Both the position numbers and the translations under genes were made by a program. A model generated the notes under the pieces. That model was not told the origin of the DNA and did not search any database. It was given only the letters and a program-made list of their open reading frames with translations. This document shows positions 1,910-10,782 of a DNA stretch of 54,536 nt, piece by piece (within the stretch, counting starts at the first letter, position 1; every line of letters begins with the position of its first letter). The stretch lies in IMG/VR virus record IMGVR_UViG_3300038321_000349, positions 1-54,536 of that record, one strand, 5' to 3'. This DNA comes from a virus (lineage: Duplodnaviria > Caudoviricetes).

Positions 1910-2216
1910 AGGCACGCGCCGCATCGGCGGCACAGAGATTCCTACTTATACGCGCGAAATTGTCAGCGCCAACGTTCTCGAGGCTGAGGCCGGCACCAAC
2001 GGCTATCAGGGCGGAGACACCGGGCACGGCAGCCGCACCTATTTCCGCATTTCGGACGAGGGCGGCACGGATATCCGGGTGCGCCCGCTGGGCCGCTGCG
2101 GAAACGGAGGCTTTGAAGTCACGCTCGGCGGCGACTGCGAACTGGAAACCATTATCACGGCGCTGAAGTTCATCACCAAGGTATTGGAGGACGGCGCGAA
2201 GGAGGTGCGCGACTGA
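1893..2216 (+). CDS. Conserved phage hypothetical protein
   Basis: GGAGG RBS; overlaps both neighbours (translational coupling). Confidence 0.75.
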   Translation: MFAVTEGTRRIGGTEIPTYTREIVSANVLEAEAGTNGYQGGDTGHGSRTYFRISDEGGTDIRVRPLGRCGNGGFEVTLGGDCELETIITALKFITKVLEDGAKEVRD

Positions 2217-4489
2217 TGTTTACGCTGTACAGCGCCGACATTGTCGGCAACCCCGGCAACTGCTCCTATCCCCACAAAACCGAAGTCACGGACGAGGAAA
2301 GCCTGCGGGCGGCGGTCTGCCGCGACTACGTCTGCGCCGAGTACAAAAACAGCTACCGAAGCGGCGACAATTTTCTCGGCTCGGACTGCCTGCCCGTGGA
2401 CTGCGACAACGACCACTCCGAAAACCCGGCCGATTGGGTTCGCCCGGCCGATGTCGCCGCCGCGTTTCCGCACGTCGGCTTCGCGGTCCATTACAGCCGC
2501 TGCCACATGCGCGAGAAAAACGGGAAGCCCGCCCGGCCGAAGTTTCATATTCTTTTCCCGATTACGCGCATCACCGACGCGGCTGCTTACAGCGATATGA
2601 AGAAGCTGGTAAGCGCCGTCTTTCCGTATTTTGACACCAGGGCGCTGGACGCGGCGCGCTTCTTCTTCGGCACATCCCGCGCCGAGGTGGAACTCTTCCC
2701 CGGCAGGATGAATCTGACCGAATTTCTGGAGGACGACGACTTTGACGCGGATCTTCCCGGCGGCAGCGGAATCGGCCCGGTTATTCCGGAGGGCAGCCGC
2801 AACGCCACCCTGTCCCGATTTGCCGGCCGTGTCATCAAAAAATACGGCGACGGCGATGAGGCGTATCAATGCTTTCTGGAGGAAGCCGCAAAATGCGCGC
2901 CGCCGCTTCCGGACGCCGAGCTTTCGACCATCTGGCACAGCGCCCGGCGGTTTTACGCCAAAATTCAGCGTCAGGACAGTTATGTGCCGCCCGAGGTCTA
3001 TAACGGCGATGTCTCATACAAACCCGGTGATTTCTCCGATGTCGGGCAGGCCGAGGTGCTGGCAAAGCACTTTTCCGGTGAGCTGCGCTACTCGCCGGCG
3101 ACGCACTTTATCCGGTACACGGAGCACTACTGGAAGGAAACCGAGCCGGGCGCACAGGCAGTGGCCCACGAGCTGACCCGCCGCCAGCTGGAGGAAGCGA
3201 CACGGGATCTGCTGGCCGCCGCCAAAAAGCTGACCGGATGCGGGGCGCAGGGCATTCTCGACACGACCTCCAAAGCCAAGGCGGAAGCGCTGTTCAACGA
3301 CGCGCAGTCCGAGGCCTACGCCGAATATCTCGCGGCGAAAGCCTACCAGTCCTATGCGATCCGCCGCCGCGATTCCAAGAATATTACCGCGGCGCTCAAA
3401 GAGGCGCGCCCGATGCTGGAGATTTCCCCGAGGGATCTGGACGCGGACTGCTTTCTTCTCTGCACGCCCGAAGCCACCTACGATCTGCGCAAAGGTCTCG
3501 ACGGCGCGCGGGAGCACGCGCCGTCCGACTTTATCACCAAAATCACCTCTGTTTCGCCCGGCAGGAAAGGCGGGCAGCTCTGGCAGGACAGCTTAGACCT
3601 CATCTTCTGCAAAGACCGCGAACTCATCGACTATGTGCAGATGATCTGCGGGCTTGCCGCCGTCGGCAAGGTCTATGTGGAAGCGCTCATCATCGCCTAC
3701 GGCTGCGGGCGCAACGGCAAGTCCACCTTCTGGAACGCGGTTTCCCGCGTGCTGGGTCTGTACAGCGGCAACATCTCCGCCGACACGCTGACGGTGGGCT
3801 GCCGCCGCAACATCAAGCCGGAGCTGGCCGAGGTCAAGGGCAAGCGCCTGCTCATCGCCGCCGAAATGCAGGAGGGCGCCCGGCTCAACGACTCCACCGT
3901 CAAGCAGCTCTGCTCCACCGACGATGTGTTCGCCGAGAAAAAGTACAAGGACCCGTTCAGCTTCACGCCCTGCCATACGCTGGTTCTCTACACCAACCAC
4001 CTGCCGAAGGTCAGCGCCTCCGACGACGGAATCTGGCGCAGGCTGATCGTGATTCCGTTTGGCGCAAAGATAGAAGGAAAGAACGACATCAAGAACTACG
4101 GCGAATATCTCTACAACAATGCCGGCGAGAGCATTCTGGCGTGGATCATCGAGGGTGCCCGAAAGGTGATCGCGCTGGATTACAAGCTCCCCGTGCCGGC
4201 ATGCGTGCAAAAAGCCATTGATGAGTACCGGGCGCAGAACGACTGGTTCGGTCATTTTCTGGAGGACCGATGCGAGCTTGCCGCCGGTTTCCGCGAAAGC
4301 TCCGGCGCTTTGTATCAGGCGTACCGCAATTACAGCATTGACACGAACGAATATGTCCGCAGCACCGCGGATTTCTATTTCGCACTGGAAAAGGCCGGCT
4401 TTGAGCGGATTGTCCGGGACGGCCGGCGCTTTTTTACCGGGCTCCGTCTCAAAACGGACGACGGAGATTTCGAGCGCTTTTTGCAGTAA
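2216..4489 (+). CDS. P4-family/D5-like primase-helicase
   Basis: N-terminal primase-like region (DCDND, RPKFH), PriCT-like EGSRNATL, SF3 Walker A GCGRNGKST, D5-type C-terminus. Confidence 0.92.
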   Translation: MFTLYSADIVGNPGNCSYPHKTEVTDEESLRAAVCRDYVCAEYKNSYRSGDNFLGSDCLPVDCDNDHSENPADWVRPADVAAAFPHVGFAVHYSRCHMREKNGKPARPKFHILFPITRITDAAAYSDMKKLVSAVFPYFDTRALDAARFFFGTSRAEVELFPGRMNLTEFLEDDDFDADLPGGSGIGPVIPEGSRNATLSRFAGRVIKKYGDGDEAYQCFLEEAAKCAPPLPDAELSTIWHSARRFYAKIQRQDSYVPPEVYNGDVSYKPGDFSDVGQAEVLAKHFSGELRYSPATHFIRYTEHYWKETEPGAQAVAHELTRRQLEEATRDLLAAAKKLTGCGAQGILDTTSKAKAEALFNDAQSEAYAEYLAAKAYQSYAIRRRDSKNITAALKEARPMLEISPRDLDADCFLLCTPEATYDLRKGLDGAREHAPSDFITKITSVSPGRKGGQLWQDSLDLIFCKDRELIDYVQMICGLAAVGKVYVEALIIAYGCGRNGKSTFWNAVSRVLGLYSGNISADTLTVGCRRNIKPELAEVKGKRLLIAAEMQEGARLNDSTVKQLCSTDDVFAEKKYKDPFSFTPCHTLVLYTNHLPKVSASDDGIWRRLIVIPFGAKIEGKNDIKNYGEYLYNNAGESILAWIIEGARKVIALDYKLPVPACVQKAIDEYRAQNDWFGHFLEDRCELAAGFRESSGALYQAYRNYSIDTNEYVRSTADFYFALEKAGFERIVRDGRRFFTGLRLKTDDGDFERFLQ

Positions 4490-7913: not shown

Positions 7914-9209
7914 ATGCAGCCGACGGAAAGGTTTCCTGCCGGGACTTCCCGGTTTGAGAAAGTGAATATCGACAAACTGGTGCCTTACGCCCGCAACGCA
8001 CGGACGCACTCCAAGGAACAGATTCTGCAGCTTCGCGCGTCGCTCCGTGAGTTCGGCTTCGTCAATCCCGTCATTGTGGATAAGGACTGCAACATCATCG
8101 CGGGGCACGGGCGCGTGCTGGCGGCGAAAGCCGAGGGCATGACCGAAATCCCCTGCGTGTTTGCGGAACATTTGACCGAAGCGCAGAAGCGCGCCTATAT
8201 TCTTGCGGACAACCGCCTTGCGCTGAATGCCGGATGGGACGAGGAACTGCTGGCGCTGGAATTCGGCGAGCTGAAGGACCTCGGCTTTGATGTGGAGCTG
8301 ACCGGCTTCGGGGCAGACGAAATTGAAAAGCTCTTTGCCGCCGACACCGGCGAGGTGCAGGATGATGACTTTGACCTCACGGTCACTTTGGAAGAGGCGG
8401 CTTTTGTTCTGCCCGGCGATGTGTGGACGCTGGGACGGCACCGGCTGATCTGCGGCGACGCCACCGACGCGGAAACGGTGAAAAAGCTGATGGGCGCCGG
8501 GAGCCCCGGTGGAAGCCGCAAGGCAAACCTTGTCCTGACCGACCCGCCGTACAACGTGAACTTCGAGGGTTCCAGCGGACTGAAAATCAGGAACGACAGC
8601 CAGAAATCAGACCAGTTCTATGCTTTTCTGCTTTCGGCGTTCCGGAATCTGGCGGACAATCTGGAAAGCGGCGGCTCCGCCTACATCTTCCACGCGGACA
8701 CCGAGGGCGAAAACTTCCGCCGGGCGTTCCGGGAAGCTGGCTTTCACCTCTCCGGAACCTGCATCTGGGTGAAGGACAGCTTTGTCATGGGACGTTCACC
8801 CTACCAGTGGCAGCACGAGCCGATTCTCTACGGCTGGCTCAAAACCGGTATGCACAAGTGGTACGCCGGCCGCTCGGAAGCCACGGTCTGGAATTTTGAC
8901 AAGCCGAAAAAGAACGCCGACCACCCGACCAGCAAGCCCCTCGACCTGCTGGCCTATCCCATCCGCAACTCCAGCGAGGCAAACGCCATCGTGCTGGATA
9001 CTTTCGGCGGCTCCGGTTCCACGCTCATTGCATGCGAGCAGACCGACCGCATCTGCTTCATGATGGAGCTGGATGAAAAGTACGCGAGCGTGATTTTGCG
9101 CCGGTATGCCAAGTTCAAACAGAACGGCGGCGCGGACGTCACCTGCGAGAGGGACGGCAGAACCTATGCCTACGCCGACCTTGTGAAGGAGGTGGCGGGA
9201 CGTGAATAA
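7914..9209 (+). CDS. ParB-like domain fused to amino (N6/N4) DNA methyltransferase
   Basis: LVPYARNARTH...FGFVNPV...IIAGHGR (ParB); TDPPYN, HPTSKP, DTFGGSGSTL (beta-class MTase). Confidence 0.9.
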   Translation: MQPTERFPAGTSRFEKVNIDKLVPYARNARTHSKEQILQLRASLREFGFVNPVIVDKDCNIIAGHGRVLAAKAEGMTEIPCVFAEHLTEAQKRAYILADNRLALNAGWDEELLALEFGELKDLGFDVELTGFGADEIEKLFAADTGEVQDDDFDLTVTLEEAAFVLPGDVWTLGRHRLICGDATDAETVKKLMGAGSPGGSRKANLVLTDPPYNVNFEGSSGLKIRNDSQKSDQFYAFLLSAFRNLADNLESGGSAYIFHADTEGENFRRAFREAGFHLSGTCIWVKDSFVMGRSPYQWQHEPILYGWLKTGMHKWYAGRSEATVWNFDKPKKNADHPTSKPLDLLAYPIRNSSEANAIVLDTFGGSGSTLIACEQTDRICFMMELDEKYASVILRRYAKFKQNGGADVTCERDGRTYAYADLVKEVAGRE

Positions 9210-10782
9210 TAAACTGACGCTCGGTTCGCTCTTCGACGGCTCCGGCGGTTTTCCGCTCGGAGCCGTTTTAACAGGGATCGAACCGCTGTGGGCTTCAGAA
9301 ATCGAGCCGTTCCCCATACGGGTTACCACAAAACGCCTGTCGGGGATGAAGCACCTTGGCGACATCAACAGGATGGACGGCTCCAAAGTTCCTCCCGCGG
9401 ATATTGTCACGGGCGGCTTTTGCTGCCAAGACCTCTCGGTCGCGGGCCGGCGAGCCGGACTTCACGGAGAACGGTCGGGACTCTTCTTTCAGGTAATACG
9501 GATTATCCGTGAAATGCTCGCTGTCACAGACAACGAATACCCGAAGTTCGCTGTGCTCGAAAACGTCCCCGGGATGTATTCCTCAAACGGCGGGCTTGAT
9601 TTTCAGGAGGTGCTCAATGAACTCATCCATATCAAAGACGAAACCCTGTCAGTACCTTTGCCTGAAAAGGGCCGATGGTCGACCTCCGGCGAAATCGTGG
9701 GAAAAGGTTTCTCCGTCGGTTGGCGCACGCTTGACGCTCAATTTTGGGGAGTCGCCCAGAGACGCCGCCGCTGTTACATTGTCGTCGATTTTACAGGCAA
9801 ACGTGCCGGAAAAATATTATTTGACGAGTCGCGCCTGCGCGGGCATCCTACGCAGAGCGGCTGTCCGTGGCAAGCAACTGCCGGAAGTGCTGAGACTGGC
9901 GCTGGAAACGCAGTCGGCTTCGAACCCGGCGCCTGCTCGAGATTAGGAGGCCGGGCATGGGCGATTGAGAATCATCCGGTGGATAGCCGCGTGAAGTTCT
10001 GTGAAAACGGCATTGTCCAAACTCTTTCCGAACGCATGGGAACAGGCGGCGGCAACATTCCGCTCGTGATGAACGAAAAGAAAGAAACTCCGCCAAACCC
10101 CGCCGCGTTTATGGGCGGACAGGGAGCGGATGCCGGAAGCATTGCCTACAGCGAAACAGTCACGCCGACCCTGCGGGGGCAGGCGGGCGGAAACTCCGTT
10201 CCGATGGTGATGACGGCGTTCGGCATCGGGTCCCATGGAAGCAGCGCCATGCTTTCGCCGAATCCGCACAGCGGGTTTTATGAAGCCGGCACCTCGCGGA
10301 CGCTCGATCTGAACTGCGCCCGCCCGGACTGTCATCAGGGCGGCGTTGCGGTGGTGAGCTATGGAATCGACCGCGCGGCTTTTAACCAAGGAAAAGGCGC
10401 GCAGTATAAGCCCCAGTTCACGGAGGAAAGCGCGGCCACGCTCACATCCCGCGGGCCTTCCGCGGTTTGCTCCCGTTATATCGTCCGGCGGCTCACCCCC
10501 ACCGAATGCGCCAGACTGCAGGGCTTTCCCGATTGGTGGTGCTCCAGTCTCGGTACGGAGCACCCGACCGAAGAGGAAATCGCCTTCTGGTCGGAAGTGT
10601 GGGAAACGCATCGTTGCGTAATGGGCGCGCCCTCCAGAGCGAAAAGCCGGAACCAGATAGTCAAATGGCTCCGGCACCCTCATACGGATTCCGCTGAATA
10701 TAAAATGTGGGGAAACGGCGTGGCTCTGCCGTGCGTCCGGTTCGTTCTGGAAGGAGTCGCGGCGGTTACCTCTTCCGTTTGA
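9202..10782 (+). CDS. C5-cytosine DNA methyltransferase with long variable region
   Basis: SLFDGSGG (I), GGFCCQD (IV, atypical), ENVPG (VI), QRRRR (VIII), RRLTPTECARLQGFP (IX), YKMWGNGV (X). Confidence 0.9.
   Translation: MNNKLTLGSLFDGSGGFPLGAVLTGIEPLWASEIEPFPIRVTTKRLSGMKHLGDINRMDGSKVPPADIVTGGFCCQDLSVAGRRAGLHGERSGLFFQVIRIIREMLAVTDNEYPKFAVLENVPGMYSSNGGLDFQEVLNELIHIKDETLSVPLPEKGRWSTSGEIVGKGFSVGWRTLDAQFWGVAQRRRRCYIVVDFTGKRAGKILFDESRLRGHPTQSGCPWQATAGSAETGAGNAVGFEPGACSRLGGRAWAIENHPVDSRVKFCENGIVQTLSERMGTGGGNIPLVMNEKKETPPNPAAFMGGQGADAGSIAYSETVTPTLRGQAGGNSVPMVMTAFGIGSHGSSAMLSPNPHSGFYEAGTSRTLDLNCARPDCHQGGVAVVSYGIDRAAFNQGKGAQYKPQFTEESAATLTSRGPSAVCSRYIVRRLTPTECARLQGFPDWWCSSLGTEHPTEEEIAFWSEVWETHRCVMGAPSRAKSRNQIVKWLRHPHTDSAEYKMWGNGVALPCVRFVLEGVAAVTSSV
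9617..9946 (+). CDS. Nested out-of-frame ORF (109 aa), putative methyltransferase beta-subunit-like polypeptide
   Basis: AGGAGGTG at 9605-9612 precedes ATG 9617 in the +1 frame; product contains TLSSILQANVPEKYYLTSRACAGILRRA..RGKQLP. Confidence 0.6.
   Translation: MNSSISKTKPCQYLCLKRADGRPPAKSWEKVSPSVGARLTLNFGESPRDAAAVTLSSILQANVPEKYYLTSRACAGILRRAAVRGKQLPEVLRLALETQSASNPAPARD

Follow-up and report, generated by a model that had tools for sequence, protein, structure and literature searches.

C5 DNA cytosine methyltransferases carry a series of recognizable sequence motifs, namely I (FxGxGG), IV (PCQ-like), VI (ENV), VIII (QxRxR), IX (RxLTxxE..LQGFP) and X (GN..). According to the available sections of two papers (PMC2836561; PMC3404938), the enzyme M.EcoHK31I consists of two chains that must associate for activity. 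The coding sequence of its small polypeptide lies completely within that of the large one, in a different frame and with internal methionine starts; motif IX is contributed by the small chain, and motifs I-VIII, motif X and the recognition domain by the large one. The initial annotation of the locus studied here had invoked M.EcoHK31I as a two-polypeptide enzyme whose beta chain lies in an alternative frame of the alpha gene, and the sections of PMC2836561 at hand describe it in this way. In M.AquI, the division into alpha and beta chains (PMC3404938, sections available) matches the layout of one group of relatives of the present gene, referred to below as type B.

We analyzed a phage DNA stretch of 54,536 nucleotides (the window), in which a methyltransferase gene contains a second open reading frame. 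The features discussed below are as follows.

9202..10782, plus strand: main-frame C5 DNA methyltransferase, 526 aa, GTG start
9509..9616, plus strand: upstream stretch, open in the +1 frame beginning with GTG 9509
9605..9612, plus strand: Shine-Dalgarno AGGAGGTG of the nested ORF, 4 nt before its ATG and 6 nt from the GGAGG core
9617..9946, plus strand: nested ORF in the +1 frame, 109 aa, product named X (P0001)
9775..9912, plus strand: dual-coding core, main codons 192-237 and X residues ~54-98
10486..10530, plus strand: main-frame strand and motif IX, residues ~426-443, YIVRRLTPTECARLQGFP, the predicted dock for the KYYL strand of X

The GTG start of the main gene overlaps the stop codon of the ParB-methyltransferase gene directly upstream. 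Motifs I, IV, VI, VIII, IX and X all occur in one frame of the main ORF (P0002; LFDGSGGF, FCCQ, ENVPG, QRRRR, RRLTPTECARLQGFP and WGNGV), with a long variable target-recognition region separating VIII from IX. Its matches to Pfam PF00145 (E 1.9e-40) and TIGR00675 (E 1.3e-36; 126.9 bits, cut-off 100.65) place it in the C5 DNA cytosine methyltransferase family, and the core of its structural model matches M.HhaI and M.HaeIII (Foldseek E 4e-11 to 1e-9). When the main chain was folded alone, residues 214-423 had pLDDT <50, so this model is unable to reveal a gap for X.

The nested ORF (ATG 9617-9619, stop TAG 9944-9946) lies wholly within the main gene. Because (9617-9202) mod 3 = 1, it is in the +1 frame. 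The initial annotation had reported AGGAGGTG ahead of ATG 9617, opening a 109-aa ORF with a segment (L..IL...V.EKYYL) that the main frame lacks. The coordinates are exact, and X includes TLSSILQANVPEKYYLTSRACAGILRRAAVRGKQLPEVLRLALE, a stretch absent from the main-frame product. The core of X (residues ~54-98) reads LSSILQ..VPEKYYL..ACAGILRRA..RGKQLPEVLRLALETQ. Close relatives called by gene finders (P0003, P0005, P0008 and P0073) start at the same methionine as X. No family match to X was found in Pfam, PHROGs or NCBIfam; the Pfam model MLTR_LBD reached E 0.0066 and 17 bits, below its cut-off of 26.3, and was dismissed as a chance match. RNA runs contained 0.12-0.15 of the words sampled from the stretch.

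The length of the nested ORF alone is weak evidence, since GC-rich DNA is rich in long chance ORFs: we counted 36 ORFs of at least 40 aa within 3.5 kb of the window, including a 322-aa antisense ORF. One may thus ask whether the nested ORF is a chance ORF or the decaying, non-functional remnant of a type B beta gene. The abundance of long chance ORFs in the GC-rich window would fit this explanation, as would the frame change near the end of X that separates types A and B. The conservation of the frame speaks against it. In all 81 parsed homologous genes, the +1 frame is open for 132-182 codons and its stop falls at a conserved position, 54-62 codons past motif VIII. These 81 genes come from 83 sequences (L051 and L054 failed the motif VIII pattern), and the aligned homologues are 52-78% identical to the window and are not dominated by near-identical sequences. 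Between the conserved position of the upstream ATG and motif VIII lie 76 codons, in which we found 0 +1-frame stops per 100 codons, vs 3.65 elsewhere in the same genes. This stretch is open in 72/72 unique genes, and synonymous shuffling gave a mean chance of 0.26 per gene that it stays open. Judged by these counts, the openness of the +1 frame across relatives is far beyond chance. The initial annotation had named frequent +1-frame stops in homologous genes as the finding that would tell against a nested gene, and none of the parsed genes has such a stop.

Searches with the X peptide (tBLASTn and HMM) gave widespread matches in the +1 frame of homologous methyltransferase genes, and a profile of the X C-domain matched 4467 cluster representatives at E <= 0.001, a breadth that is difficult to reconcile with a chance ORF or a remnant. 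The same layout occurs in 69 of 80 bacterial-genome loci; of the other 11, ten did not qualify (several have much shorter main ORFs) and one was missed by the pattern. In the P7-like clade the nested layout is present in 77/80 loci. One relative (L280) has a premature stop inside the nested ORF. The +1 frame of the annotated C5 methyltransferase also holds a match in 4/4 distant annotated phages (P7, Vibrio PS10B.1, Mycobacterium JuicyJay and Pseudomonas TC7). At every locus examined, the nested ORF lies inside the same methyltransferase family.

Synonymous variation in the main frame is suppressed over the nested ORF, as would be expected from the dual coding proposed in the initial annotation. 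At codons ~192-231, the normalised codon entropy of the main frame is 0.14-0.18, vs ~0.8 elsewhere. The entropy at main codon positions 1/2/3 is 0.86/0.39/0.43 in the core and ~0.5/0.3-0.45/1.4 elsewhere, a codon periodicity that follows the +1 frame and not the main frame. Where codons of the core differ, the change is synonymous for the +1 frame in 54% of cases and for the main frame in 14%. The core holds a single close-strain SNP, 9877 A>G, which leaves Gln87 of the +1 frame unchanged and replaces main-frame T226 with A. These patterns indicate that the +1 frame is the dominant selective constraint over 9775..9912. The N-terminal half of X is weakly constrained, with 16% of differing codons +1-synonymous vs a background of 7-8%. 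The selection signature recurs in the P7-like clade (33 sequences <90% identical). The measurements of purifying selection in the +1 frame used type A genes exclusively, which argues further against a remnant of a type B gene. The open frame and the selection data, as read from the alignments, already contradict a remnant or chance origin, which we consider extremely improbable.

The start signals of the nested ORF are maintained as well. In most clades, an ATG lies 10 codons ahead of ENV (62/72 genes, with 4 more at -13). This upstream ATG arises from an Asn codon of the main frame, for which 47/47 genes use AAT; Asn codons elsewhere in those genes are AAC 769 times and AAT 742 times. The Arg codon before that Asn is AGG in 67/69 genes, which results in GAAATGAGGTG ~8 nt upstream of the ATG. 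Synonymous choices in the main frame thus preserve both the Shine-Dalgarno and the ATG of the nested ORF. In the clade of the window, the start has been relocated to 9617: GGAGGT(G/A)CT(C/T)A followed by ATG is found at the same place in 4/4 members (the window, L003, L004 and L005). In other clades, the start mostly falls in the counterpart of 9509-9616, a segment that the window's clade probably does not translate in the +1 frame. Given that the start site varies between clades, the true N-terminus of X is uncertain. Taken at the sequence level, these comparisons show a nested ORF that is real, conserved, under purifying selection in its own frame and equipped with preserved start signals.

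Some relatives arrange the same pieces differently. In type B relatives (for instance L083), the main frame ends soon after motif VIII, and the X frame extends further to encode the recognition domain and motifs IX-X. For a type B enzyme to possess motifs IX-X, its +1 frame must be translated. The alpha and beta ORFs of L083 overlap by 374 nt, and the frame change between types A and B lies near the end of X. Among the matches listed, 88 of 120 longer homologues are of the type B kind. Databases also hold ORFs that join the N-terminal motifs to X.

Such joined ORFs could suggest that ribosomes enter the X frame through a programmed +1 frameshift past motif VIII, giving a short isoform with motifs I-VIII fused to the X C-domain; the order of motif VIII and then L..IL..KYYL, which is colinear with single-chain enzymes, would fit such a shift. 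However, a poly-G tract of altered length or deletions account for the joined ORFs, and motif VIII is in frame with X in 0/120 longer homologues among the matches listed. The 76 codons kept open in the +1 frame before motif VIII, in 72/72 genes, would be superfluous for a shift that occurs later, and the start signals preserved by synonymous choices also speak against it. The Arg codons within motif VIII differ at the third position (entropy 0.86-1.26), so no conserved shift site is seen there. We therefore regard frameshifting as very unlikely. A -1 slippery site (X_XXY_YYZ) that would return the end of X to the main frame was sought in the last 21 codons, was present in only 2/72 genes, and was rejected.

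We then considered the relation of X to the large chain. Complex predictions for X with the main chain gave ipSAE values of 0.77, 0.78 and 0.77, and 0.00 for the best of three controls; the score may stem from the model's memory of single-chain methyltransferases, and the alignments supplied lay outside the calibration of the tool. The mark used for this score is reached by 58/80 solved complexes and by 2/110 mismatched pairs. The runs have at least 85% of contacts in common, with partner pLDDT of at least 72. The contacts of lowest error join main-chain residues 427-432 to X residues 67-69, and 434-439 to 58-60. Searches of solved structures with the X sequence (protocadherin, E 1.2) and with the X profile (antibody light chains, E >=0.25) returned chance matches only. 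The initial annotation had proposed a heterodimer built from dual-coded DNA, and our results support this proposal, the two-chain part through structure prediction (ipSAE 0.77).

X might nevertheless be produced without being a structural subunit, acting as a regulator of the methyltransferase or serving phage DNA protection in some other way, with its place inside the gene a coincidence. No family is assigned to X, every canonical motif is already in the main chain, and the beta-type protein P0075, folded alone (mean pLDDT 43), is predicted with confidence only in a helical hairpin (residues 60-95, pLDDT ~90); all three points are compatible with such a role. On the other hand, in type B the domain is covalently joined to the chain with the recognition domain and IX-X, the predicted interface involves motifs VIII, IX and X and the last recognition module, and the ORF never leaves this methyltransferase family at the loci examined. 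A role outside the enzyme thus seems unlikely to us.

We favor, as the probable explanation, that X, with an initiation site of its own, is the small subunit in a methyltransferase of two chains made from dual-coded DNA. The methyltransferase mRNA would be read in two frames. Initiation at GTG 9202 would give the 526-aa chain, composed in order of the catalytic core (I-VIII), a poorly constrained linker, the target-recognition modules and IX-X, while internal initiation at ATG 9617, through its own Shine-Dalgarno, would give the 109-aa X. The conserved C-terminal ~55 residues of X would form the KYYL strand and then a helical hairpin (ACxGILRRAxxRGKxLPxxLxxAL). X would dock on the large chain at a site flanked by the catalytic core and the last recognition module, with its KYYL strand pairing with the strand that leads into motif IX. 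By this pairing, the segment that follows motif VIII in cis in single-chain C5 methyltransferases would be supplied in trans, and the active enzyme, as proposed, would have two chains. We infer that X is translated in this phage, that it binds the large chain and that methyltransferase activity requires it.

More broadly, the nested ORF may be an ancient and never annotated third module of a superfamily of phage and prophage C5 methyltransferases, its attachment rewired by single-nucleotide frame changes, so that the enzyme would be modular and frame-switchable. We see this broader view as equally open to being right or wrong. The superfamily would span phages of Bacillota, Proteobacteria (including P7, species Punavirus P1), Actinobacteria and others, and the module would take three forms: free X, as in the window; X fused to the recognition domain and IX-X, as in the split alpha/beta relatives; and the N-terminal half fused to X via a variable poly-G tract. 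If so, a synthetic gene synonymously recoded for the main frame would lose X.

The nested ORF is almost never annotated. The initial annotation had anticipated that standard annotation would miss it, and none of the annotated phage records examined lists it as a gene. It is an out-of-frame gene of 100-165 codons, conserved in very distant phages and lacking a curated protein family, and it probably encodes a small piece of the methyltransferase itself. Among prokaryotic viruses, the family is a clear example of dual coding that has remained stable. Should X be a subunit, these methyltransferases, which are common in phages, would consist of two chains (the available sections of the Heliusvirales paper report a C5 methyltransferase gene in 67% of its genomes), and synonymous recoding of the main frame or partial expression would silently drop a component. 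The natural variants, which are distinguished only by the joining of their pieces, illustrate the origin of split enzymes. Our literature search, which covered main texts, found no description of the nested ORF. An out-of-frame HNH insertion in actinophage methylases (PMC11855218, available sections) is a different case, and PMC5723332, in the sections available, is irrelevant to the nested ORF.

The Dam protein of P7 (species Punavirus P1) is a member of this family, and its gene likewise contains the nested +1 ORF, which measures 165 codons between stops and ends ...LLSQVLEQTSIPQRYFLSSKACAGILRRAEARGRKLPDILQ... No gene is annotated inside Dam in the P7 record, and the available sections of a review do not mention one. 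The P1 record gives the same tblastn match as P7, under a different product name. The nested ORF thus also seems to be present in a laboratory phage of this species.

The single-chain enzymes M.HhaI, M.HaeIII and E. coli Dcm share the fold of the catalytic core with the main chain. The initial annotation had likened part of X to the stretch that follows motif VIII in single-chain enzymes. This resemblance holds weakly for Dcm, where X residues 50-70 align with Dcm 305-325, ~30 residues past its motif VIII (10/21 identical), and the support is marginal, coming from one comparison (BLASTP E 0.031). In single-chain enzymes the segment is in cis and in frame, whereas in the window it is in the other frame. 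The DNA of the X segment overlaps motif VIII and the next ~45 main codons, and one chain therefore cannot hold both without a frame change.

The window resembles M.EcoHK31I in that its small ORF lies entirely within the large gene in a different frame. It differs in what the nested chain carries: motif IX of the window is in the main frame (429-443) and X has none, bearing instead the stretch after motif VIII. The arrangement in the window is also family-wide, in phages of several bacterial phyla. M.AquI is matched by the type B relatives (L083; P0119, P0164 and P0115), with an alpha chain of I-VIII and a beta chain of part of the variable region plus IX-X. In contrast, the main frame of the window is unbroken as far as IX-X, the recognition domain included, and of the 'beta' frame just the first module remains, as a free 109-aa protein.

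Three features of the window, all on the plus strand, are central here:

9202-10782, +: C5 DNA methyltransferase gene, 526 aa, with motifs I, IV, VI, VIII, IX and X
9605-9612, +: Shine-Dalgarno sequence AGGAGGTG, read from the sequence
9617 (ATG) to 9944-9946 (stop), +, +1 frame: nested ORF X (product P0001, 109 aa), read from the sequence

The positions that the initial annotation had given for AGGAGGTG, for the ATG in the +1 frame and for the 109-aa product were exact. The main ORF matches PF00145 in Pfam (E 1.9e-40), and its TIGR00675 score exceeds the cut-off. In the same phage genome, genes for a helicase-primase, an SNF2-type helicase and a ParB-methyltransferase fusion (7914-9209) lie 5' of it, and those for the large terminase, head protease, major head protein and tape measure protein lie 3'. 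The GTG start shares 8 nt (9202-9209) with the end and stop of the fusion ORF, an overlap that suggests translational coupling of both methyltransferases. Because 36 ORFs of at least 40 aa occur in 3.5 kb of the window's GC-rich DNA, the existence of the nested ORF is by itself no proof.

The proposal that this stretch is dual-coded was borne out among homologous genes. When P0001 was compared by tblastn with 50,697 phage records, 143 matched (top match 60% identity, E 1e-27), with matches in the +1 frame of homologous methyltransferase genes. For instance, the AT-rich Streptococcus phage Javan191 and Ruminococcus phage NatCom_28274 match in the +1 frame of the annotated methyltransferase, in nested ORFs of 131 and 139 codons that end in ...VPEKYYLS.(K/R)ACQGIL.RA..RGK.LP... 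We combined these two and the window with 80 IMG/VR loci retrieved with the main protein as query. The main ORF carried the motif VIII pattern in 81 of the 83 sequences, and all 81 parsed genes have an open +1 frame of 132-182 codons whose stop lies 54-62 codons past motif VIII. The pattern was missed in L051 and L054, both of which contain the X domain. The stop-to-stop frames with the main gene vary from 509 to 758 codons (homologues L001-L082) because the count of repeated recognition modules (TL..GG..P.V-like units) differs, a variability that presumably recalls the multispecific phage methyltransferases.

To assess selection, we used 72 distinct genes with 52-78% identity to the window's main protein. 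Over the 76 codons 5' of motif VIII the +1 frame is open in all 72, that is, 0 stops per 100 codons versus 3.65 elsewhere; after synonymous shuffling of this stretch, the mean probability per gene of remaining open was 0.26. Outside the overlap, the main frame has a normalised synonymous-codon entropy of mostly 0.76-0.89 (less in the initial bins); the value is 0.54-0.68 from about codon 102 (0.79 in a single bin) and 0.45 at codons 182-191. It reaches its minimum of 0.14-0.18 at codons 192-231, the suppression of synonymous variation for which the initial annotation had proposed a test, and afterwards returns to 0.67-0.85. Entropy at main codon positions 1, 2 and 3 is about 0.5, 0.3-0.45 and 1.4 in controls, and 0.86, 0.39 and 0.43 at codons 191-232, where variation is concentrated at what the +1 frame reads as its third position.

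Synonymous fraction of the differing codons in each frame
Motifs I-IV: main frame 70%, +1 frame 8%
Codons 106-185: main frame 42%, +1 frame 16%
Codons 192-237: main frame 14%, +1 frame 54%
Motifs IX-X: main frame 58%, +1 frame 7%

The codon-position and synonymous-share data therefore indicate strong purifying selection on the C-terminal ~55 residues of X. Over these residues the main frame looks almost non-coding-like, as expected of a tolerant linker, and the N-terminal half of X is only weakly constrained yet kept open. Near-identical strain contigs from four coded runs of four studies differ once within the core of dual coding (9775-9912), at 9877 A>G, which is silent in X (Gln87) and changes main-frame T226 to A. 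Five of the six differences 5' of the core fall at main-frame third positions, and that at 9340 at a first position. Taken together, these sequence comparisons leave very little doubt that the dual coding is real.

In runs X5 and X9, summed contig depth was highest over the dual-coded core (window 9732-9890), and contigs of remoter relatives align only there; a 4492-nt contig, for example, matches with 15 differences over 9775-9882 alone. In one X5 contig, 9824 is joined directly to 10261 and 436 nt of the recognition region are absent.

The start signals of the nested ORF are also conserved. In most clades the first nested-frame ATG lies 10 codons 5' of ENV (motif VI): this holds for 62 of 72 genes, including 3 whose index is shifted by an earlier ENV tripeptide, and at -13 in 4 more. 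It arises where the last two nucleotides of a main-frame codon are AT and the next is G: Asn at this position is AAT in 47 of 47 genes, versus 769 AAC and 742 AAT elsewhere in those genes. Upstream, 67 of 69 genes have AGG for Arg and 70 of 72 have GAA for Glu, which yields GAAATGAGGTG about 8 nt 5' of the nested ATG. The window's clade is without this common ATG; all four members have GGAGGT(G/A)CT(C/T)A followed by an ATG at the 9617 position, and gene-finder calls in close relatives start at the Met of 9617. Entry into the +1 frame by frameshifting is unlikely because the nested ORF has its own start. In addition, slippery sites near the end of X are not conserved (2 of 72 genes), and neither is any shift site at the Arg codons of motif VIII, which vary in their third positions.

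The way in which X is joined to the other modules differs among relatives. In the window's arrangement (type A), X is free, and the main frame holds the core and linker together with the recognition domain and motifs IX-X. In type B, exemplified by the homologous locus L083, the main frame ends 30 codons past motif VIII, and the +1 frame runs from an AAGGAG-ATG start 5' of ENV through X into the recognition domain and motifs IX-X:

L083 (IMG/VR contig), 1945-3826: split gene; alpha (motifs I-VIII) ends at 2874, beta at 2501-3826 in the +1 frame, overlap 374 nt

In type B the enzyme has motifs IX and X only if the +1 frame is translated, and this dependence is the strongest indirect sign that the frame is read. 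Type B accounts for 88 of the best 120 longer X homologues (of 2320 with E <= 0.001), none of these 120 has motif VIII in frame with X, and the P0115 cluster, related to the split form, has 2335 member sequences. A third form consists of ~200-aa ORFs in which motifs IV-VI are joined to X. In one gut-phage clade (IMG/VR contigs, L164-L192) it results from a poly-G tract of variable length at about position 2829 of each locus, within the dual-coded DNA that separates motifs VI and VIII. Across 29 loci, on contigs 93-100% identical, the tract is G6 in 2, G7 in 2, G8 in 14, G9 in 9 and G10 in 2. The main frame is intact with G8, X is in frame with motifs IV-VI with G7 or G10, and neither is in frame with G6 or G9. 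The tract could act as a phase-variation switch, or its differing lengths could be an artefact of sequencing or assembling the homopolymer.

The initial annotation had regarded the enzyme as a heterodimer. Among mechanisms for X, a methyltransferase subunit translated separately has the best support and is probably the right one. Complex prediction with the 526-aa chain and X, each as a 69-row alignment, gave ipSAE of 0.77, 0.78 and 0.77, and 0.00 for the best of three controls; of 80 solved complexes, 58 attain this ipSAE mark, as do 2 of 110 mismatched pairs. At least 85% of contacts are common to the runs, and partner pLDDT is 72 or higher. The predicted contacts of lowest error are those of X 67-69 (YYL) with main 427-432, the strand preceding motif IX, of X 58-60 with main 434-439, of X 12-14 with main 163-166 and of X 55 with main 185; X helices also contact main 335-387 in the last recognition module. 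The predictor may owe this score to single-chain enzymes that it has memorised; in that case, too, it puts X where those enzymes have the cis segment. Folded alone, the main chain is confident in the catalytic core only, which matches M.HhaI and M.HaeIII, and a beta-type relative is poor apart from a helical hairpin. The suggested resemblance of X to the stretch following motif VIII in single-chain enzymes held for position, since X 50-70 aligns with E. coli Dcm 305-325, ~30 residues beyond Dcm motif VIII; the similarity is weak (10 of 21 identical; BLASTP E 0.031 in a single comparison; hhalign E 0.011 with a low probability of 3.8%).

Weaker tblastn matches extend to methyltransferase genes of Vibrio, Aeromonas, Pseudomonas, Pectobacterium, Mycobacterium, Akkermansia and Roseobacter phages, P1 and P7. 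In P7 ('dam'), Vibrio PS10B.1, Mycobacterium JuicyJay and Pseudomonas TC7, all four matches lie in the +1 frame of the annotated C5 methyltransferase, in nested ORFs of 147-165 codons:

P7 (L245; species Punavirus P1), 2216-2713: nested +1 ORF within the 'dam' CDS 1918-3936, 165 codons stop to stop

The P7 record has no annotated gene there; GGAG lies 8 nt 5' of ATG 2513, with a putative product of 66 aa. In JuicyJay (L247, 1667-3113) the methyltransferase annotation consists of two CDSs (231 and 116 aa), after which comes an HNH endonuclease; the nested ORF (159 codons) crosses the end of the first CDS. The P7 peptide retrieved at least 598 IMG/VR stretches, and 77 of the 80 loci kept share the layout. 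In this P7-like clade the selection signature repeats: third-position entropy is mostly 1.3-1.57 upstream (0.94 and 1.11 in two bins) and 0.2-0.6 at -10 to +39 codons around motif VIII, and first-position exceeds third-position entropy at +20 to +49 codons. L280, an IMG/VR locus of this clade, is the only one seen with a premature nested-ORF stop, 14 codons past the KYF motif, and its main frame is intact.

A search of bacterial genomes, with one genome for each species, gave at least 582 stretches coding for the X peptide. The layout recurs in 69 of the best 80; 10 fell outside the criteria, several with main ORFs far shorter than the rest, and the motif pattern was missed in 1. By title these loci are Bacillota, save two bins labelled Bacteroidales or Bacteroidaceae. 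When 1.84 billion cluster representatives were searched with a profile of the C-terminal domain (60 aa, alignment A4), 4467 matched at E <= 0.001 and 3550 at 1e-10. Clusters of 'hypothetical proteins' of 102-144 aa, largely viral, are present in the ESM Atlas.

We found no description of the nested ORF in the literature searched, supplements apart; the available part of the Heliusvirales paper mentions the methyltransferase and not an overlapping gene. According to PMC2836561 and PMC3404938, the beta chain of M.EcoHK31I lies wholly within the alpha gene in another frame, has internal Met starts, is required for activity and carries motif IX. In M.AquI, as described in PMC3404938, alpha has motifs I-VIII and beta IX-X, like the split in the type B relatives. 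The window has the nested topology of M.EcoHK31I, but X would supply another segment and the arrangement is family-wide here.
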